NCBI GenBank assembly: GCA_049599895.1
Contig: JBMYPC010000075.1
Location: forward strand, 1-15,188
Origin: Bacteriovoracaceae bacterium
Lineage (GTDB): Bacteria; Bdellovibrionota; Bacteriovoracia; Bacteriovoracales; Bacteriovoracaceae
Length of the DNA stretch: 15,188 nucleotides
Reading direction: 5' to 3'
Position numbers and translations under genes: made by a program. The notes below the pieces were generated by a model. That model did not search any database. It was not told where the DNA came from and saw only the letters and a list, made by a program, of their open reading frames with translations. The first letter of the stretch is position 1. Every line of letters starts with the position of its first letter. Shown here one piece after another: positions 774 through 15,171 of this stretch.

Positions 774-827
774 GCGACTAGTTTTTCAATTATGAAATTT
801 TAACCATTTATACTCATCATATTTTGT

Positions 828-1139
828 GCCCTCGAGGATGTGAGCTATTTCTATAAGGAAGTAGAATGGATCGATACTCTCTTGGCCAATCCAAAAGTTC
901 ATATTGTGACGGCGGCAGGGAATAGTGGAGTGCAACTTCATGAAAATAATCAATGTAATGTCTATCTAGCTTGTCTTCGATTCAAGCTCTCAAAGAAAGA
1001 GAAGTTTCATATTGTAGGAAGTACAGATGGTAAATTCAATCAAGGAAAAGTTTTAACAGCCAGAAGACCATCAAGCTTTGGCCTTGAAAATGGGACGAGT
1101 ATTTCAGCTGCTAGATTCGCCTCGGAGCTGATAGACTAG
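828..1139 (+). pseudogene. 5'-truncated S8 subtilase-like gene (copy A), paralog of 8814-9470
   Basis: ALEDVSYFYKE...VTAAGNSG...CNVYLACL...NGTSISAARFASEL aligns with the C-terminal half of the 8814-9470 product. In-frame stop at 801-803; the N-terminal half carrying the HGT motif is absent. Confidence 0.8.
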
Positions 1140-1142
1140 AGC

Positions 1143-1322
1143 TAATCTTTTGAATTGAAGTGAGACCTTAGTCCTGAACCTGTCGGAAGAAGCCCGCCTA
1201 AAAAGGAAGAAGAGAGAGTAAGGAGGGGCTATGCTTTTACACTAAGCAAGTATTGTGAAAACCGCATGAAGTTTTTGATAGCGATTAGTAGAGTCAGTCT
1301 TTGTATGAGCTTCTTTGAAAGG
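1143..1322 (+). ncRNA. Candidate structured non-coding element (copy A)
   Basis: Shares ordered blocks TAATCTTT, CCTGAA, CGGAAGA, GAGAGAGTAAGG, GTGAAA-N-CCGCA, GCG-N-TTAGTAG, GTCAG, CTTTGT with 9468-9652; sequence-divergent hairpins lie between the blocks. Strand assumed from flanking genes. Confidence 0.5.
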
Positions 1323-1342
1323 AAAAAGTATGTAATACACAA

Positions 1343-1463
1343 ATGCCTGTGATCCTCAGATATAAAAATGTCAAAATATGTATTTTCCCTGATGATCATG
1401 GCCAAGTACCTCGAGCAAAGAGTCGAAATTTTACTGGAGGCTTGGAATGAATACCAAAACTAA
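1343..1463 (+). pseudogene. DUF4160-like putative toxin with frameshifting internal deletion
   Basis: Not in the ORF track. ATG 1343 reads MPVILRYKNVKICIFPDDHG (DUF4160-type start). Another frame reads KYLEQRVEILLEAWNEYQN* to TAA 1461-1463 (typical end), overlapping the antitoxin start. The middle of the domain is missing. Confidence 0.65.
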
Positions 1464-1719
1464 GAAAAAAGACATTGAATACGGAGACGTCGAAGTTGAT
1501 CTTCCTTCAACTTGGAACTCTAATGAGACGAAAGTTAGAATCACAACTTTTCTCGACGAAGACCTTCTCATCAAGATCAAAGAAGAGGCAAATGCTCAAG
1601 GGAAAAAATACCAGTCACTTCTTAATGAGAGATTGAGGGAAGTCTTTATGGGTGAGGAAGGCTTAGAGACACGGCTCAAGAAGCTTGAGGAAGAAGTTTT
1701 CAAAAAGAAAATGGCCTAG
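1447..1719 (+). CDS. BrnA/CopG-like ribbon-helix-helix antitoxin
   Basis: 'KVRITTFLDEDLLIKIKEEANAQGKKYQSLLNERLRE' fits the BrnA-family pattern; GGAGG RBS upstream. Confidence 0.8.
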   Translation: MNTKTKKKDIEYGDVEVDLPSTWNSNETKVRITTFLDEDLLIKIKEEANAQGKKYQSLLNERLREVFMGEEGLETRLKKLEEEVFKKKMA

Positions 1720-2345: not shown

Positions 2346-2492
2346 CAGTCAATTAGAAAGATAGTGAAAATGAGATTAAAAAATATAGGAATTGAAACAA
2401 GTCGATTAACTTGTCACTCTATGAGACATACTGCTGTAACCCTTAGTCTCTTAGGAGGGAGCGGACTTCAAGAAACAAAAGAACTCGCGCGC
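2346..2492 (+). pseudogene. Internal fragment of a tyrosine recombinase/integrase
   Basis: Not in the ORF track. Reads QSIRKIVKMRLKNIGIETSRLTCHSMRHTAVTLSLLGGSGLQETKELAR: the H-x-x-R box II motif, ending just before the expected H and catalytic Y. Confidence 0.8.
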
Positions 2493-3039
2493 TGGAAAAT
2501 GGATTTTTACAAGCGGAACACTCACCATTGAGAGGGCCTACTTTTTTATCTTTTTCACAGATGCCAACCCCTACGTTTCCATGCAGAAATAGGAGGTCAG
2601 GCATATTTTCTTCGCTTAAATATCCGTTGCGTCTATATGCCTGGATTAAGAATGAGTCCCAATTAAAAGTAGCGATAGTGTCTTTTGCTCTAAGCGAACA
2701 AACTAGGTAGTCATAGATTGTGACTACATCAGGAAGTCTTAATTCTGAAAAGTAATTAAAGATAGCATCTTCCATCTCTCTGCATAGATCAGAATATTTT
2801 TTTTGGGAGTAGAGACTAGAAAAAAGACTCTCAAATCCAATCCCATCATACTTTATAGAATACTTATCAAGAATTGAGGTCATACCTACCGTCTTAACGA
2901 AATGCTCATCCATTAGTGGAAGATGGCGATTGTTAGAATCACCATTAGGACATGCCGCTTTACTGGCCCCTGCACCTAAAACAACTAGATGGGGGGCATG
3001 GAGTATATTGAGTTTTCGGTCGTATGGTGGAAGTTTCAT
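2493..3039 (-). pseudogene. 3'-truncated SIR2-like (SIR2_2) protein
   Basis: Motifs VVLGAGAS, TFNWD, LHGNV followed by a Cys cluster. After CSACKNPFS the ORF reads into the antisense of the integrase fragment and stops at 2443. Confidence 0.75.
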
Positions 3040-3088
3040 AGGTCTAACTTAACAAACCTTCCCATTTTTGGGAAATTCTTAAATAGAT

Positions 3089-3131
3089 CCACTCTATAAA
3101 AGTCTAATTATTTTAGATGCTTATAGAGTGG
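3089..3131. repeat. Inverted repeat in the divergent intergenic region
   Basis: CCACTCTATAA (3089-3099) / TTATAGAGTGG (3121-3131) with inner TCTAA/TTAGA pairing. Confidence 0.6.
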
Positions 3132-3152
3132 CAAAAGCCTCTGAACTAGAAA

Positions 3153-3230
3153 TTACGCAAGTTTGAGTAATTCCTTGATTTCTTACGCAGTTTTGCGTAA
3201 TATTGAAATATGTTACGCAACTTTGCGTAA
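3153..3230. promoter_or_regulatory. Three TTACGCA-N4-TGCGTAA palindromes at exact 30-bp period
   Basis: 3153-3170 (one mismatch, TGAGTAA), 3183-3200, 3213-3230; directly upstream of the ATPase start. Confidence 0.75.
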
Positions 3231-3252
3231 ACTAAAAATGGATAGGAATAGC

Positions 3253-4488
3253 ATGGCAAGAGTAAAAAACCCCTTTATCACCGATTCAATAGTTGACGGA
3301 GAAGACTATTGTTCAAGGCAAGTATTGGAAGAAAGGATTTTGACCAAGCTAGAAAGTGGGCACAAGTTGGCTTTAATTGGAGATCGGAGAATTGGTAAAT
3401 CATCCACTGCTCACTATGTAATCGACAATATGAAAGGCACTTATAAAGTTGATGTTGACCTCTATCATGTTGCTGATGCCGCCGATATAGCTGAGGCAAT
3501 AATTGATGCCTGTAAAAAAGTCTTGGATGAAGTATGGGATTCCAAAAAGGTCTTAGACATGGCCAAAAGTGTGAAGCCTAAGTTGGAAGTAGCACCAGAT
3601 GGATTTTCTCTAGGGTTTGACACTAGGCCAAAAGAGTTTAGAAAAACTCTTAACATTGCTTTTGAGTTTTTAGATGAAACTATCAAACGAACAAAAAGAA
3701 AAATAGTTATCTTATTTGATGAGTTTCAGGCAATCAAAGAAGTTAAAGATGGTGATGCAATACTTAAATATATGAGGGGGAAAATCCAAAAGTTGAATAG
3801 AATACCCATCATGTACGTTGGGAGTATTAGGCATGAAATGGACAGCATATTTAGAGATCAAAGCTCTCCATTTTTTAAGCAAACAGAGATTATCTACTTT
3901 GAACATATAGAGAAAGATATTTTCTATCAATTTGTTTCTAAGAAGTTTCAGAAAAAGAAAATAACCATTAAGGAAGTAGTCTATGGGCATCTCTATGAAA
4001 TATGCTATGGAATTACTGGTGATATTCAGCAGTTTTGTAGAGTAGCTTTCGATAGTTTAAAGGAAAATACAACAATAGATTTTGATACCTTCTTTTATGT
4101 AATGGAAATTATCTACAAAAATGAGTTTAAATACTTTCAAGCAACGATTGAGGGAAAAGAACTCACAAAAGTTCAACAAAACTTTTTACTTCAAATAGCA
4201 AATGCTCAACACCAAGAAGGAACTAAACTGTTTGGCCAAGAAATCCAAAAAGCTTCTGGTGTTAAAAGTCCTGGCACACTTAGAAATGCTATGATTGCCC
4301 TAGAGAAAAAGGGTCATATCTATAAAAGTGAAGACAGATATTGTTTTTCAAACCCTTTCTTTAAAGAATGGCTTTTGGATTACAAGTTGGTAATTCGAGC
4401 AACAGCCGGAAACTTGGTTGCCGGAGGAGCTATCGCTGGCACTAGGCTTGATTTTGGGCATAGAGAGAGGATAAAAAAACAGCAATAA
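3253..4488 (+). CDS. AAA+/archaeal-type P-loop ATPase with probable C-terminal winged helix
   Basis: NPF N-terminal motif, Walker A GDRRIGKSS, Walker B ILFDEFQ, YVGS, C-terminal 'ALEKKGHI...Y.FSNPFFKEWL'. ATG 3253 with AGGA upstream preferred over the TTG at 3163. Confidence 0.85.
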   Translation: MARVKNPFITDSIVDGEDYCSRQVLEERILTKLESGHKLALIGDRRIGKSSTAHYVIDNMKGTYKVDVDLYHVADAADIAEAIIDACKKVLDEVWDSKKVLDMAKSVKPKLEVAPDGFSLGFDTRPKEFRKTLNIAFEFLDETIKRTKRKIVILFDEFQAIKEVKDGDAILKYMRGKIQKLNRIPIMYVGSIRHEMDSIFRDQSSPFFKQTEIIYFEHIEKDIFYQFVSKKFQKKKITIKEVVYGHLYEICYGITGDIQQFCRVAFDSLKENTTIDFDTFFYVMEIIYKNEFKYFQATIEGKELTKVQQNFLLQIANAQHQEGTKLFGQEIQKASGVKSPGTLRNAMIALEKKGHIYKSEDRYCFSNPFFKEWLLDYKLVIRATAGNLVAGGAIAGTRLDFGHRERIKKQQ

Positions 4489-5764: not shown

Positions 5765-5794
5765 AAAATGGCGGGAGCGGAAAGCGACGAACCC
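5765..5794 (-). other. tRNA-3'-end-like remnant / putative att core (copy 1)
   Basis: Minus strand GGGTTCG-N8-CGCTCCCGCCA has T-arm-to-CCA spacing like a tRNA-Asp 3' end and is followed by the terminator. AAAATGGCGGGAGC (5765-5778) recurs exactly at 13662-13675. Confidence 0.5.
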
Positions 5795-7081: not shown

Positions 7082-7483
7082 ATGGCCAAGCTCACCTACA
7101 ATCTTGAGAGACTCGAGAAGTGCATCTTCTCTCTCTACGATGACATCAAAACAGCAGATGACATTCTGAAAACTTGGGACATTGACGAGAGTGGAATTGA
7201 GAAAGCTTGGGAAGAACTCACCGTAGGAAAAGTTCTCATTGGTGGCTCTCCTCTGAGTAGAATCCGATTGCTGGATTGTTGGAAGTGGGAGCACATTGTG
7301 GACCCGCCTCTTGATGACGAGTACCAACCCTTATGGGAGGAAGCACAAGACTGCAAGGAGATCATCGACAGGGGTGATGACCTCTGCTCTCTCCTTCTCA
7401 TTTTTGCCATAGAAGGTGGCGACCCATCTCAGTTCATTGTCGATGATGAGAGCTTGCGACCTGAGTTTTTGAGGAATGGATGA
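7082..7483 (+). CDS. Acidic hypothetical protein
   Basis: 133-aa ORF, CAGGA upstream, first gene of a co-directional cluster; no recognised motif. Confidence 0.7.
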   Translation: MAKLTYNLERLEKCIFSLYDDIKTADDILKTWDIDESGIEKAWEELTVGKVLIGGSPLSRIRLLDCWKWEHIVDPPLDDEYQPLWEEAQDCKEIIDRGDDLCSLLLIFAIEGGDPSQFIVDDESLRPEFLRNG

Positions 7484-7899: not shown

Positions 7900-8444
7900 G
7901 AGCAATATTTTTGATTATGGCCTTTGTGTTTGCAAGAGGAGCCCTTGCTGACAACTTCAAGGGATACGACCCAAAGTACAAAAAGCAAGTAGAGAAGATG
8001 AGAAAGTTCGTCTCTGATAAGAACAAATGCTTTGCTAGCGTATGGGCCATAGCTGATGTTTCTATCAAGCACTATCTCCCTGGTTACGCTCGGACTGTCT
8101 ACTGCTTCGCCGATTTGATTTTAGACAAGGGGAGTATCAATGAAAAGAATGGTTGTATGCTTGTCAATTACAGAGTGGACAATAACCAGTACCATCTCAT
8201 TGTGCAAAAGCCTTTTGACGTTCCTGTAGTGAAAAAGAAATGTGCTCAAGGTGGCTTCGAGGAACTGGTTCAGAAAAAAGGAAATTGGTATCCCATCACA
8301 GGAGGAAAACCATTTACGGTGGAGAAGTTTCTTTTCGGAAGTGTCACCGTCCCAAGGAATAGAATTGACATTCACCTCATCAATGCCAAAACAAACAAGG
8401 CCAGAGAGTACGTTTTGAAGAAGATTGCGGAAGGTGAGAAATGA
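7896..8444 (+). CDS. Secreted Cys-containing hypothetical protein
   Basis: Signal peptide MRAIFLIMAFVFARGALA-D; four Cys; ATGA overlap with the HTH gene. Confidence 0.75.
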   Translation: MRAIFLIMAFVFARGALADNFKGYDPKYKKQVEKMRKFVSDKNKCFASVWAIADVSIKHYLPGYARTVYCFADLILDKGSINEKNGCMLVNYRVDNNQYHLIVQKPFDVPVVKKKCAQGGFEELVQKKGNWYPITGGKPFTVEKFLFGSVTVPRNRIDIHLINAKTNKAREYVLKKIAEGEK

Positions 8445-8830
8445 GAACTCTCTTTTTCTTGATGACATTTTCACTAGAGCTATTGGCGAGTGAGTATGTC
8501 TATCACCCCAAATGGATGGCCATCTACAAAGGACTATACGGCTCAACAATTCTCACAAGAATCAACAACGACTATGGCTGGAAGGTTCCTCATCACGATT
8601 GCAAAGCAGAAACAGTGAAAGAACTTAAGGCTGGGAGCTACCATCGCAAACTCACCTGCAAAGAAAAGTCTGTGCTTCTTGAATGCAAGGCTAAAGATCA
8701 AGAAGTGACAAAGTGTGATGTGGAACTAGCTGGAGTGACTTTGCACTTAGAGATACGAAGGTTTTTGACGATGAGAGCTTTGAGAAAAAAACAACTCAAA
8801 GAAGAACTTGAAAATGAGATCCCTTATTAG
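8441..8830 (+). CDS. Secreted Cys-containing hypothetical protein
   Basis: Signal peptide-like MRTLFFLMTFSLELLA-S; four Cys; ATGA overlap with the previous gene. Confidence 0.75.
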   Translation: MRTLFFLMTFSLELLASEYVYHPKWMAIYKGLYGSTILTRINNDYGWKVPHHDCKAETVKELKAGSYHRKLTCKEKSVLLECKAKDQEVTKCDVELAGVTLHLEIRRFLTMRALRKKQLKEELENEIPY

Positions 8831-9470
8831 GACTTGTTTTCTTCTCATCATCATTCTGTCAGCTATCTCCTGTGATCACAGAAAAAGAATTGTCATTTTG
8901 GAAAGTGGAGTTAATGTCACCGAAAAGCTGAAACCATTTCTCTGCAATAACGGTCACAGAAGCTTCTTGAAAGGACAAGCTTGGAATAAAGATGAAACAG
9001 GTCACGGGACAACTATATTAGAAGTTCTCTCTCAAAAGTTGGACCCCAACAAACATTGTATTCTTGTCTATAAGACAACTGATAGGAAAGCACGAGCTTA
9101 CGAATATGCAATGGCCTTAATTGAATTGCAAAGAGTTGATTTTGAGGTTCTGCTTCTCGCCCTCGAAGACGTAGGGTACTTCTACAAAGAAATTGGTTGG
9201 CTTGATTCGATTTCCTCAAGATCAAAAGTTGTCGTAGCGGCAGGGAATGGAGGAGTGGAGCTAGGAAATAAGAAAAGCTGTAATGTGTATCCAGCCTGTC
9301 TCATTCACAAGATAGATAACCAAAAGAACTTCTTTGTCATTGGCTCGAATGACAGAAGATTTAACTATGGAGAAATCATCAAAGAGAAAAGAAACCCCAA
9401 TCACAAAGACCAATCAGGAACAAGCATTTCTGCTGCAAGATTCGCCAGCGAACTAATGGCACAAGACTAA
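8814..9470 (+). CDS. Minimal S8 subtilase-like lipoprotein (copy B)
   Basis: Lipobox-like SAISC; IVILESGV (E in place of the catalytic D), DETGHGT (His), VAAGNG (oxyanion Asn), SGTSISAA (Ser); ~218 aa with no propeptide. Confidence 0.8.
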   Translation: MRSLIRTCFLLIIILSAISCDHRKRIVILESGVNVTEKLKPFLCNNGHRSFLKGQAWNKDETGHGTTILEVLSQKLDPNKHCILVYKTTDRKARAYEYAMALIELQRVDFEVLLLALEDVGYFYKEIGWLDSISSRSKVVVAAGNGGVELGNKKSCNVYPACLIHKIDNQKNFFVIGSNDRRFNYGEIIKEKRNPNHKDQSGTSISAARFASELMAQD

Positions 9471-9652
9471 TCTTTCTTTCAGGCCAGGTGTAAACCCTGA
9501 ATCCAACGGAAGAGTCCGGGCGTGAATGCTGACAGGGAGGTGGAGAGAGTAAGGGAGCACCTTGTGCCCACGGAGGCTACGTCGTGAAACCCGCAATCCC
9601 GAGGTTGCGCTTAGTAGGTCAGGCCTTTGTTGGCACGCTCATAGCAAAGAGG
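9468..9652 (+). ncRNA. Candidate structured non-coding element (copy B)
   Basis: GC-rich island with hairpins GGT-GTAA-ACC, CGGA-AGAG-TCCG, CCTT..AGG, CGCAATC-CCGA-GGTTGCG, CTTTGTT..AGCAAAG and a possible closing stem CCTGA/TCAGG. Linker blocks are conserved with 1143-1322. Confidence 0.55.
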
Positions 9653-9724
9653 ATAAAATTTAAATCTGAAATGAGGTAACTACCTAATATTCCAATATAA
9701 ATCTTCTGTCTGAAACTATAGGTA

Positions 9725-9753
9725 GTGACAAGGTGTACACCTTGTGGTACTCT
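9725..9753 (+). promoter_or_regulatory. Sigma70-like TA promoter with 18-bp palindromic operator
   Basis: GTGACA (9725-9730)-17 bp-TACTCT (9748-9753); perfect palindrome ACAAGGTGTACACCTTGT 9728-9745 with a TGTACA core as in yefM-type operators. Confidence 0.7.
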
Positions 9754-9774
9754 TCGGGTTATCAGGAGATTTCT

Positions 9775-10035
9775 ATGCAAAATGTAAATCCAAAGAAGCT
9801 AAGAGCAGAATTGAAGGACTATTTGGACCTAGCTTCTGGCGAGCCAATTCGCATTCAACGTAGAAGCGGAGAAAGCTATGTCCTCATCAATGAGGATGAT
9901 TTTTCAGAAATGAAAAATGAGATAATGTCTCTTCAAAAAAGGTTACTGGCCATGACAGAGGTGGTAGATAAAAAGGTTGAAGAGTATCAACCCGGAGATC
10001 GCAATCGTTTGAAGCGTCTCAAGAAGAAAGCATAA
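9775..10035 (+). CDS. Phd/YefM-family antitoxin
   Basis: 'VNPKKLRAELKDYLDLASGEPIRIQRRSGESYVLINEDDF'; AGGAG RBS before ATG 9775. Confidence 0.85.
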   Translation: MQNVNPKKLRAELKDYLDLASGEPIRIQRRSGESYVLINEDDFSEMKNEIMSLQKRLLAMTEVVDKKVEEYQPGDRNRLKRLKKKA

Positions 10036-10377
10036 GTGGTCAAATTTTATTTCACTAAAAATTATTCTAAAGAGCTGGAAAGAATTGAAGATTTTATTCT
10101 TGAGTCAACTGAAAGCATAGAACTGGTTGAAAAATTCCTGGATGAACAAGATCAAACTCTCGAGTTCATTTCTCAAAACCCAAAAACTCCGGCTATTCAC
10201 CCAACCACAGGGGATCAGTCTTGGGTTTTCTCCGATGGGAGATATAGGCTCTTTTTCAAAGTTACTCACAAAGATGACGATCTTGAGGTTTTTCTCCTGC
10301 ATATCATAGACAATAGAGAAGCTAATTTAAAAGTTTATCCAGGGAATAACCTCCCCACATATTACGAGGAAGAATAG
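10036..10377 (+). CDS. RelE/ParE-family toxin
   Basis: 'FYFTKNYSKELERIEDFI ... YRLFFKV ... VFLLHIIDNR'; GTG start abuts the antitoxin stop. Confidence 0.75.
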   Translation: MVKFYFTKNYSKELERIEDFILESTESIELVEKFLDEQDQTLEFISQNPKTPAIHPTTGDQSWVFSDGRYRLFFKVTHKDDDLEVFLLHIIDNREANLKVYPGNNLPTYYEEE

Positions 10378-10740
10378 ATGGAGTTAACTATTAGCAGTAT
10401 GAACTTTCTCTTTAAAAAGAAATGGGCCATTAGATTCGCTACAGTGACAATTTTCATCATTTGTACGATCTCTCTTGCTAGTTTCAACTTGTATCGTCCA
10501 TTACATATTCGTGTGATTTCAGGTTTGATTGATTCATTTCTGTTAAATTCCCCCTTATTTGTTTGTGCAATGAGAATTTCGTCTGGAAAATTCAAGTATT
10601 TACTCGCTTTTGGAGTTCTTCTGTCTAGCTTGGCAGGTTTACTTCTTGTTGTTCGTCAAGGATGGCCATTGGGTATAATGTCTACGGCTTTTCATTTATG
10701 GCTTATTTATGAACTGCTTTCACAGAAGGGTCGCAAATGA
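10378..10740 (+). CDS. Small ~4-TM membrane protein (copy B)
   Basis: Paralog of 1739-2098; abuts the toxin stop and overlaps the next gene (ATGA). Confidence 0.8.
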   Translation: MELTISSMNFLFKKKWAIRFATVTIFIICTISLASFNLYRPLHIRVISGLIDSFLLNSPLFVCAMRISSGKFKYLLAFGVLLSSLAGLLLVVRQGWPLGIMSTAFHLWLIYELLSQKGRK

Positions 10741-11396
10741 CAAGTTTATGGCGACCCGACTTACTTAGCGATGATGCTCGTGATGAAGCCTATAGGTATT
10801 TTGACAAAAATATTCGCCCTCTTCCCAAAAAGGCTGATGGAACGATCGATACGACAGCATTTGGGTTAAGTGATAATGATGTTGATGCTTTTAGACATGC
10901 CCACGTGAGCGGGGTTTTAACTATTGTCTATAGTGAGAATACAGCAGACATATTAGGTAGGTTGAATGAATACAGACCTCTTGATTTGTATTCAAACTCA
11001 AGAGATCCGAAGTCTCTCAATATGGACCTTTGGAATAACAGTGTTGGAAGAAAATATGGCAAGAAAACAAAAGATAGAAAAGAATTGCTCAAACTTATTC
11101 ACAAGGCTTTGGATAATGGAGAACTCATTATCGACCCTAAGAACGACAAACGAATTTATGAGGGAGCAAGCCACGACCCAGTCAATAAATCAAAACCTGT
11201 GATTGTTTTGACTGAGGATGAAAATGGAAGAAATCAGACCTTTCTTGATCTCGTCAGAAACCAAGTTCTCACAAGAGAAGAGTTTGTTTCTCAAATTGAG
11301 GCTAAAAATTACCCTGGCTATACAGTAAAACAAATCAACGGAGTCCCAACTCCAGTTTCAAATCCAGATGGAAGACGCACAAACAATTTGAGTTAG
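10737..11396 (+). CDS. DUF6973-like (DAFRH...DLWNN) protein with DUF3892-like C-terminus
   Basis: DAFRHAHVSG and MDLWNNSVGR motifs; C-terminal 'TREEFVSQIE...Y.V..ING..TP.SNPDG...NNL'. Confidence 0.7.
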   Translation: MTSLWRPDLLSDDARDEAYRYFDKNIRPLPKKADGTIDTTAFGLSDNDVDAFRHAHVSGVLTIVYSENTADILGRLNEYRPLDLYSNSRDPKSLNMDLWNNSVGRKYGKKTKDRKELLKLIHKALDNGELIIDPKNDKRIYEGASHDPVNKSKPVIVLTEDENGRNQTFLDLVRNQVLTREEFVSQIEAKNYPGYTVKQINGVPTPVSNPDGRRTNNLS

Positions 11397-11876: not shown

Positions 11877-11905
11877 TTGACCATTGAAAATGGAAATTGT
11901 AGCTT
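11877..11905 (+). promoter_or_regulatory. Sigma70-like promoter
   Basis: TTGACC (11877-11882)-17 bp-TAGCTT (11900-11905). Confidence 0.6.
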
Positions 11906-11907
11906 GC

Positions 11908-12034
11908 CTTCCGTAATAACGCGTGGCCGGAAGCCTGCCCGAGCTGACAGGGGTCCTAGGTAAAGGAGTCTTCCAAGGCCGAGACAGAACGACGGACCCC
12001 ATTGCTCCCTTTGGGAAACCAGAGGGAGCTTTTT
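11908..12034 (+). ncRNA. Structured leader / small RNA ending in an intrinsic terminator
   Basis: CTTCCG/CGGAAG stem, GGGGTCC (11950-11956)/GGACCCC (11994-12000) stem, then the terminator at 12004-12034. Confidence 0.55.
12004..12034 (+). terminator. Intrinsic terminator / attenuator just before the helicase RBS
   Basis: GCTCCCTTTGG-GAAA-CCAGAGGGAGC-TTTTT, then AAGGAG (12038-12043) and ATG 12049. Confidence 0.75.
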
Positions 12035-12048
12035 GAAAAGGAGAGCAG

Positions 12049-13431: not shown

Positions 13432-13617
13432 AAGGTTTTTTACACATTGTTTGTCTATTCGTCATTTTGTTTGCCACTCGTAAATTCGGGCCAGTAAGAA
13501 CTGCGAACAGAAAAAAAGCGCAACTCTGCACCCCTGTTTTTCGCCCTCAGGGTGAAAGGCATCCACGGGTTCGCCGAACCCGGCTGCAGCATCGCTTCTG
13601 GCGATGTCGCTTTGTGA

Positions 13618-13755
13618 AAATTGATTGATTTCGAGAGCTTGACCCCGCTCTCAGGGGTTCGAAAATGGCGGGAGCAAGTGGACGATTTTAGAACCGTGTG
13701 TAGGGAGTTATTTGTCCACAAAAACTCTGACTTTTTAGAAGGTAGGGTTTTATGA
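13618..13755 (+). pseudogene. Possible C-terminal remnant of a large serine recombinase overlapping att core copy 2
   Basis: Reads KLIDFESLTPLSGVRKWREQVDDFRTVCRELF...*, a W..VD.FRT-type tail recalled from element-borne serine recombinases. Contains hairpin GACCCC..GGGGTT and AAAATGGCGGGAGC (13662-13675). Confidence 0.4.
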
Positions 13756-13967: not shown

Positions 13968-14094
13968 GTTATCTGGTCAAAAAATTACTCATCTATCAAA
14001 AATTTTTATCTATGCGATAATCTAAGCATAATAATTTTAAGTAATTAGAGACTTTGAATTTTGTCAGTTTCTTGCAACTACAAGGAGGTAGTTG

Positions 14095-14736
14095 ATGTCA
14101 CAGCATGATGTAGTGTTGAAAAGCATCTTAGATTTAGCAATGGATTATAGAACTAAACTTGAAGGAAAAATAAATGACCGTAAAAAGGAAATGGAAGAGG
14201 ACGATTTATCTCATCATGACCTCTATTCAGTCTTAGGTGTTACAAGCGAGAAGGGCCATCAGATAGATATATATCAAAACATTGGTAGGTTTTTATATAA
14301 ATATGCTGGTTCATTTTTAGAGGAAGCAGCGGTTATTTGTTTTAAGTCGAAATACCCTGATGCTGACAAGGTAAAGATTCCAAACACGATTGGACAAAAA
14401 CCAAAAACATTTGAAATTGATTGCTTGGTGGGCAAAAGGGCTTATGAAATTAAGTGGAGAGACGCTACGACTGATGGAGACCATATAACAAAAGAGCATA
14501 CCAGAGTTCAAAACATTAAAAACGCTGGTTACACGCCTGTAAGAATAATGTTCTACGAGCCAAACCGTTCACAAGCACAGAGAATACAGGTTAGGCTTAA
14601 AAATATTTATGAAGAGGTAAATGGTGAATATTACTCTGGTGACACGGCGTGGAAATATATTTTAGAAAAGACAAATGTTGATTTAAAAGCTATATTAAAT
14701 GAAGTTGCCACAAAGGTAAGTTTTATGGAGATTTGA
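14095..14736 (+). CDS. ApaLI-like type II restriction endonuclease
   Basis: 'IDIYQNIGRFLYKYAGSFLEEA', 'FEIDCLV...AYEIKWRDATTDGDHITKEH' (PD-(D/E)xK); AAGGAGG RBS, start TTG 14092 or ATG 14095. Confidence 0.88.
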   Translation: MSQHDVVLKSILDLAMDYRTKLEGKINDRKKEMEEDDLSHHDLYSVLGVTSEKGHQIDIYQNIGRFLYKYAGSFLEEAAVICFKSKYPDADKVKIPNTIGQKPKTFEIDCLVGKRAYEIKWRDATTDGDHITKEHTRVQNIKNAGYTPVRIMFYEPNRSQAQRIQVRLKNIYEEVNGEYYSGDTAWKYILEKTNVDLKAILNEVATKVSFMEI

Positions 14737-15171
14737 ATGTTTATTAACAAGGATTGCATTGAAGCGTTAAGTGAAATTAAAGAAGAGACAGTAGATTTAA
14801 TTTATTTAGACCCACCATTTTTTACTCAGAAAAAACAAAAGCAAAAAACTAGAGATAATACAAAAGAATACTCATTTGACGATAGCTGGTCGTCTATTGA
14901 TGAATATCGTGATTATATTCAAGACAGACTTGAGGTTTGTAAAAAAGTTCTAAAGAAGACTGGTTCAATTTTTCTTCATTGTGATAAAGCTGCATCTCAT
15001 CACTTACGAATTGCATTAGACAATGTATTTGGTTACTCAAATTTTCAAAGTGAAATTATTTGGACTTACAGAAGATGGTCCAATGCTAAAAAAGGTTTAC
15101 TTAATAGTCACCAGGTAATCTTTTTCTATTCTAAGACTAAGAGTTTTAAATTTAATCAAATGTTTACATAA
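14737..15171 (+). pseudogene. N6/N4 DNA methyltransferase (beta class), truncated
   Basis: VDLIYLDPPF, LKKTGSIFLHCD, EIIW; stops at 144 aa before any FxGxG SAM-binding motif. Confidence 0.8.

Follow-up and report, generated by a model that had tools for sequence, protein, structure and literature searches.

We report a non-coding element of about 185 bases that starts at the stop codon of an S8-like (subtilisin) peptidase gene in a mobile island of predatory bacteria, within the 15,188-nucleotide stretch of Bacteriovoracaceae DNA analyzed here (hereafter the window). The window holds an intact-looking copy 2 (positions 9467 to 9653, plus strand), which begins at the TAA stop codon of the S8-like gene and whose ends were placed from its putative closing stem, and a partly decayed copy 1 (1142 to 1323, plus strand). 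The element is very probably a functional structured RNA: a Y-shaped, plus-strand molecule of about 185 nt is predicted, in which a closing stem carries two long arms, each with a GAA/AGUA loop. It is a real and rare new candidate RNA motif, and represents a candidate structured RNA family outside Rfam. As for its role, we tentatively suggest an orphan RNA released from the S8 cassette message at its 3' end and acting as a protein-binding or docking scaffold, a reading we hold to be possible rather than probable. An earlier note on this DNA had proposed a structured, functional element of no recognized family behind S8-like genes. This part of the proposal stands, but the specific pairings drawn in it do not.

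Eight short blocks pointed out previously are all present, identical and colinear in the two copies, namely (copy 1 / copy 2) TAATCTTT (1143-1150 / 9468-9475), CCTGAA (1173-1178 / 9496-9501), CGGAAGA (1184-1190 / 9507-9513), GAGAGAGTAAGG (1212-1223 / 9543-9554), GTGAAA.CCGCA (1255-1266 / 9584-9595), GCG.TTAGTAG (1281-1291 / 9607-9617), GTCAG (1293-1297 / 9618-9622) and CTTTGT (1299-1304 / 9625-9630). Global alignment of copy 1 with copy 2 gave a score of 117, against 42.6 +/- 8.9 for dinucleotide shuffles (n = 300, z = 8.4, best shuffle 72), and the 185 bases 3' of each copy do not align (z = 1.3). A third copy lies 3' of a homologous S8 gene in genome G053 and keeps the first four blocks; its 3' half shows no significant sequence likeness to the window copies (z = 0.9 and -0.2). 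In all three copies the start of the element lies 0-6 bases from the S8 stop codon, copy 1 starting two codons past the stop of a 5'-truncated S8 relative. Searches of the 3.27-Mb source genome with a profile of both copies and with a core model revealed no copy beyond the two in the window, both of which adjoin S8 genes. MITEs, IS ends and REP-like repeats occur as many dispersed copies with terminal inverted repeats. An element of this kind was rejected because only two copies are present in the genome, both behind S8 genes. Six-frame translations of the three copies have no reading frame in common, which rules out a decayed coding sequence. Thus, of the deflating explanations raised in the earlier note, neither a decayed coding sequence nor a known IS end fits when checked.

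The S8-like gene before copy 2 (8808 to 9470, plus strand) is intact, encodes 220 aa and has HGT, AAGN and GTS motifs. A profile of 30 S8 homologues matches solved subtilisins with an E-value of 2e-13, and 11 close relatives with 46-53% identity were found in protein collections. The protein has a hydrophobic N-terminus with a Cys and, judging from its sequence, is likely a lipoprotein. The relative that precedes copy 1 (816 to 1139, plus strand) is 5'-truncated, retains the C-terminal half only and is 48% identical. Gene B of the cassette (8441 to 8830, plus strand) lies directly 5' of the S8-like gene, and gene A lies at 7082 to 7483 on the same strand; both are syntenic in G053. The ~220-aa minimal S8 family to which such proteins belong comprises 917 clusters at E-values up to 1e-10 and has several invariant cysteines, and a single S8-like sequence is missed by Pfam, PHROGs and NCBIfam.

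The S8 genes also supply a measure of divergence. Among third positions, those of copies 1 and 2 agree at just 38 of 104, and among four-fold sites at 11 of 23, so that the similarity of the two RNA copies exceeds a leftover of duplication, and the S8 gene of G053 is identical to that of copy 2 at 6 of 29 four-fold sites. In the alignment of the arm A core from the three copies, 29 of 63 columns are invariant. A contig from sequencing run X3 has 88% identity to the window over 9057-9739; in this comparison, in one listing of which 6 of 29 differences are given without a position, third codon positions of the S8 gene differ at 28 of 75 (a count using 38 of the 40 listed gene differences, the two beside an indel being excluded), compared with 1 of 61 bases in the arm A core (9495-9555). 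The whole element differs at 14 of 181 bases, and the 63-base spacer 3' of it holds nine listed differences. Because silent sites of the S8 genes have diverged while the core is nearly unchanged, and because no frame is common to the copies, we regard the element as non-coding and constrained; on these comparisons it is under purifying selection, tightest in the 5' half. A second contig, from run X5, also covers the element. In these two partial contigs, which share most of their changes, none of the 20 changed sites falls within the 23 loop-motif bases (P = 0.07, not significant), and stems have no deficit of changes (they contain 11 of the 20, and 96 of 181 positions are paired). Nothing from runs X6 and X7 aligned on the element. 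The same figures bear on the idea that the element has no function and is an old spacer or a decayed gene that was duplicated together with the cassette. The small number of copies, the decay of copy 1 and the folding of the whole length, which equals that of shuffles, would suit this idea, but the adjoining gene is close to saturation at its four-fold sites next to a nearly unchanged core, and the copies lack a common frame. We therefore consider the absence of function largely refuted by the sequence comparisons, with a slim chance of being correct.

The predicted fold centers on arm A, the conserved core (9486 to 9562, plus strand; 1163-1230 in copy 1). Its helices are formed by 9486-91/9557-62, 9495-98/9552-55, 9502-07/9539-44 and 9515-17/9535-37, so that it runs from a basal helix through a CCCU/AGGG helix, a GAA loop, a 6-bp helix and a one-sided GGAAGA bulge to a variable tip. 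The second helix reads CCCU/AGGG in copy 2, UCCU/AGGA in copy 1 and CACC/GGUA in G053. The GAA (9499-9501, plus strand) lies opposite GAGAGUA (9545-9551), which by its sequence would make a loop of the bulged-G or loop-E type with a 3-base GAG bulge; this loop is invariant in all three copies, is unchanged in the X3 and X5 contigs where they cover it, and is flanked by the helix that covaries among the three copies. The purine bulge GGAAGA (9508-9513, plus strand) is likewise invariant. Arm B (9564 to 9636, plus strand; 1233-1310 in copy 1) would pair the CTTTGT block with the stretch that follows arm A, through helices 9564-68/9632-36 and 9570-78/9622-30, with a tip hairpin at 9592-9609 and a second loop of GAA (9586-88) and AGUA (9613-16) under the CGC..GCG hairpin. 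This arm is common to copies 1 and 2. G053 has neither its sequence nor its loop, and the 3' half of the G053 copy, though unlike in sequence, folds as a long arm of similar length. The closing stem is predicted between UCUUU (9471-9475, plus strand) and 9646-9650; all three copies allow a similar U-rich/AAAG pairing, with zero compensatory changes. These pairings replace those suggested earlier. A multibranch fold closed by CTGA and TCAG had been envisaged, but the CCU of CCTGAA pairs instead with the AGG of GAGAGAGTAAGG, in a helix where both sides have changed in three of four pairs, and G053 has no CTGA or TCAG at the corresponding places. The local hairpins TGCTT..AAGCA and CCTT..AGG similarly give way to the long arm B pairing with the CTTTGT block.

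The alignments show compensatory changes in the putative helices of arm A (three copies) and arm B (two copies). In the arm A core both sides have changed in 5 of 12 pairs, a count reached by 4 of 500 shuffles and set against 0-2 in slid controls, and in the full model for the two window copies in 6 of 39 pairs, reached by 7 of 500 shuffles; these counts come from only three and two sequences at related loci, with the structure drawn from the same sequences, and related sequences can exceed shuffles without any structure. RNAalifold, unaided, proposed the outer arm A helix and the arm B helices, and a model trained solely on copies 1 and 2 retrieved the G053 copy with 38.5 bits and an E-value of 1.5e-7 in 35 kb. 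Folding of the whole element is no better than that of shuffles (z = 0.48 and 0.20). For single arms the z-scores are -2.9 for copy 2 arm B, -4.8 for G053 arm A and -0.9 for copy 2 arm A. The arms of copy 1 have z-scores of +0.8 and +1.3; there the model is about 10 kcal/mol worse than the free fold, and the helix 1179-84/1208-13 has three of its six pairs left. Two further motifs were tried and rejected: the leader CUAA paired to UUAG, which a change in X5 disrupts, and a K-turn at the GGAAGA bulge, which would cost G053 its 6-bp hairpin.

The consensus of loop E, or the bulged-G motif, is a GAA facing AGUA between two helices. At the level of sequence, this arrangement is found in arm A of all three copies and in arm B of two of the three, and we infer loop-E geometry for both loops. 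In one account (PMC2879506), loop E is described as having a sheared A-G pair, a trans-Hoogsteen U-A pair and a parallel A-A stack, with the bulged G often contacting protein.

We infer that the RNA strand is the plus strand. Plus-strand folds are more stable than minus-strand folds in all three arms tested, and at paired sites changed in X3 or X5 the pair is kept at 9 of 11 on the plus strand versus 5 of 11 on the minus strand, the figure of 9 of 11 not being significant (P = 0.10); two changes in X5 break pairs of the model. The earlier note had also entertained a recombination or origin site acting as single-stranded DNA, and the loop-E-type motifs together with changes that keep G-U pairs instead favor plus-strand RNA. 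A broader version, in which folded single-stranded DNA acts as an attC-like, origin or packaging site, draws on the location of the element within a mobile island, on the tolerance of G-T pairs in DNA hairpins too, and on the fact that cassette sites begin at a stop codon, as the element does. However, the element is not one long imperfect hairpin, its two loop-E-type motifs are features of RNA, and the att-like sites of the island lie elsewhere (5765 and 13662). Only two copies are present in the genome, and no joint at the element was found in seven sequencing runs. We thus hold a DNA-level site to be very unlikely.

We compared the element with known RNA families. In Rfam 15, no family reaches the gathering threshold in any of the three copies, which agrees with the earlier statement that no family could be assigned. 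The best match inside the element is to the FMN riboswitch (RF00050) in copy 2, at 17.4 bits against a threshold of 66.2 and with an E-value of 0.093. The match covers the outer parts of the model only: copy 2 mimics the first and last hairpins, but the center is missing (74 model positions are unmatched), and the same bases are engaged differently in the covarying helix of arm A. Copy 1 and G053 have no FMN match. Context also led us to reject an FMN riboswitch, because toxin-antitoxin genes or a tRNA terminator lie downstream and not riboflavin genes. A looser form of this idea is a riboswitch-like leader for downstream genes, in which an aptamer resembling half of the FMN type would be combined with a ribosome site concealed in the 3' AAAG(A)GG strand. 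The outer FMN match and the resemblance of the closing strand to a Shine-Dalgarno site would fit it. Nevertheless, the downstream genes differ at the three loci, G053 has no long open reading frame before the tRNA terminator, and the Phd/ParE pair that follows copy 2 has its own palindrome and SD-like site, so that this pair is probably not led by the RNA. Such a leader has a very slight probability, and the cis-regulator of a downstream gene proposed in the earlier note is weakened by the same difference among the loci.

The element also resembles the T-box Stem I specifier loop, in which loop E lies in an asymmetric internal loop of a long arm (PMC2879506). However, the AGUA strand carries the extra bases of the element, GAA is followed by three variable bases (UCC, UCU, CCU), and the element has no T-box match in Rfam and is not upstream of amino-acid genes. 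A T-box riboswitch was rejected, as a specifier codon beside loop E, an antiterminator and amino-acid genes downstream were not found. Likenesses to 5S rRNA, RNase P RNA, SRP RNA and the ATP aptamer were set aside, as Rfam gave no support for them.

No terminator-like or promoter-like site marking the ends of the element was found (a sigma-70-like site at 9630-9659 was rejected because it is altered in X3 and X5). From this we suggest that the element would be co-transcribed with the S8 gene as the 3' end of the cassette message. The closing stem might then define a unit that is trimmed out and persists as a stable RNA. In arm A, the invariant purine loops could serve the host island as a surface for protein binding or tertiary docking. 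The RNA persists behind broken S8 genes at two of three loci (copy 1 and G053), which hints at a role apart from the protease, although slow decay would look alike. In a different explanation, the element acts in cis in the 3' UTR of the S8 message, either blocking 3' decay or switching with translation; in the switching variant, the partner of the leader as ribosomes depart from the stop codon would be either the 3' end or, in arm A, the GAGAGAG strand. The short distance to the stop codon in all three copies is in keeping with a cis-acting element, as is the small energy gap, 0.6-3.4 kcal/mol in every copy, between the arm A fold and the fold that pairs the leader with AGAGA. Against it, neither leader pairing has a compensatory change, and U-rich and purine-rich strands pair readily. 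Persistence behind broken S8 genes also speaks against it, and one study (PMC5737381) calls regulatory RNAs in bacterial 3' UTRs unusual. We consider a cis-acting role unlikely, with an appreciable residual chance.

A catalytic role was considered as well. The element could belong to a new class of self-cleaving ribozyme whose two loop arms dock and cut the polycistronic message of the island behind the S8 gene, a proposal we find rather improbable. We judge about equally improbable the related picture of a catalytic RNA, made of the loop-E arms and the GGAAGA bulge, that would process the transcript of the island targeting tRNA-Asp and be kept after the protease gene breaks. The internal loops are invariant and the stems variable, two arms leave one junction, and the end of the element has no terminator-like site, all of which could be expected of a ribozyme. 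Hairpin ribozymes dock two loops, one of them with an S-turn, and G8, A38, G+1 and C25 are invariant in their loop A/B core, as PMC8216279 describes; the element is similar in that both of its arms leave one junction and contain a conserved internal loop with an S-turn or loop-E-type element. However, its loops do not fit loops A and B in a comparison made by eye, it has no Rfam match, and it was found in a DNA island rather than a circular RNA. At E-values up to 10, none of the Rfam ribozyme families scores in the three copies, G053 has no arm B loop, and no conserved pseudoknot was found by eye. In addition, a link to a single protein family is called unusual for self-cleaving ribozymes in PMC5737381. 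Of the same general kind as the orphan RNA that we tentatively favor are the orphan motifs DUF3800-I, drum, skipping-rope and raiA (Weinberg et al. 2017, PMC5737381), which are likewise multi-stem, have conserved loops, are linked to genes and, like the element, have no consistent 5' UTR position.

The RNA is known from three genomic loci and two partial run contigs, and all loci are of common descent. An S8 profile gave matches in 3 of the 238 genomes of the order, and the RNA is 3' of the S8 gene at three of four loci; at the fourth, in G257, a distant S8 gene runs straight into the next open reading frame and the RNA is absent. A 19-base pattern matched five of the 238 genomes, with three true sites in two genomes and three chance sites. 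Over overlapping sets of 151, 80 and 80 genomes, the core model (R1) scored above 29 bits only on its training copies; when the eight best non-training matches were inspected, the highest were in or across open reading frames and their motifs were broken. The full model (R3) gave two weak matches in open reading frames among 237 genomes, but it missed the positive control G053, so that this blank is weak. Scans of viral contigs yielded 33 pattern loci, none homologous by R1, and the element was not found in annotated phages and plasmids. When genomes and metagenomes were scanned with the S8 alignment, the matches were all distant subtilases, and a wide S8 profile over 401 genomes of the phylum matched general subtilases. 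No description of the element, and no structured-RNA description for this bacterial group, was found in literature searches of openly accessible papers; motif tables outside Rfam, in supplements or subscription journals, could contain one. The detection started from two diverged copies in one window, fewer than comparative screens require. If true, a new ribozyme class or an island RNA-protein module would be a real addition, and an orphan motif at three loci a moderate one.

The surroundings of the element are those of a mobile island. A block consisting of the S8 gene, the RNA, a toxin-antitoxin pair, a membrane gene and a DUF6973 gene is duplicated in the window, and the toxin-antitoxin pairs differ. 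Copy 2 is followed by a Phd/YefM antitoxin and ParE toxin (9733 to 10377, plus strand; palindrome at 9728-9745), and copy 1 by a 35-codon truncated open reading frame and a CopG/BrnA-like antitoxin (1343 to 1719, plus strand). The 35-codon frame (1343-1450) has zero matches in PHROGs and NCBIfam, and presumably resembles the start of a DUF4160-type toxin. The genes for a small membrane protein and a DUF6973 protein recur as a pair at 1685-2364 and 10378-11396, the first copy being truncated. Two att-like remnants are present, a 15-bp copy of the tRNA-Asp 3' end at 5765-5779 and a 14-bp copy at 13662-13675, and the window also holds a repressor-like gene, a broken DnaB-like helicase and a transposase remnant. 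On these grounds we read the window as a stack of decayed islands that probably targeted tRNA-Asp. A third copy of the tRNA-Asp 3' end is on contig C142. In G053 the order is gene A, gene B, broken S8 gene and RNA, ending about 350 bases from the tRNA-Asp 3' end; in G169 a remnant of genes A and B lies near the same tRNA-Asp, without S8 gene or RNA. A short contig from X5 joins sequence resembling approximately 13585-13615 to 9667, so another strain may carry a rearranged or deleted version of the island.

We also observed other features in the window. A second GC-rich structured leader (11905-12040, z = -2.1) ends in a terminator-like hairpin and U run, and lies between a divergent repressor-like open reading frame and the broken DnaB-like helicase. 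It has no Rfam match above threshold, and its placement is, we assume, that of satellite-type immunity or attenuator RNAs. Positions 11965-11974 are complementary to 9508-9517 of copy 2 at nine of ten bases, probably by chance. At 2443-4488, a broken minus-strand open reading frame with a GAGAS motif neighbors a divergent AAA ATPase that ends in a winged helix; we take the former, which has zero library matches, to be SIR2-like, and the two are possibly a decayed defense pair. Just past the second att-like site, 14092-15171 encodes an ApaLI-like restriction endonuclease and an N6/N4 methylase.
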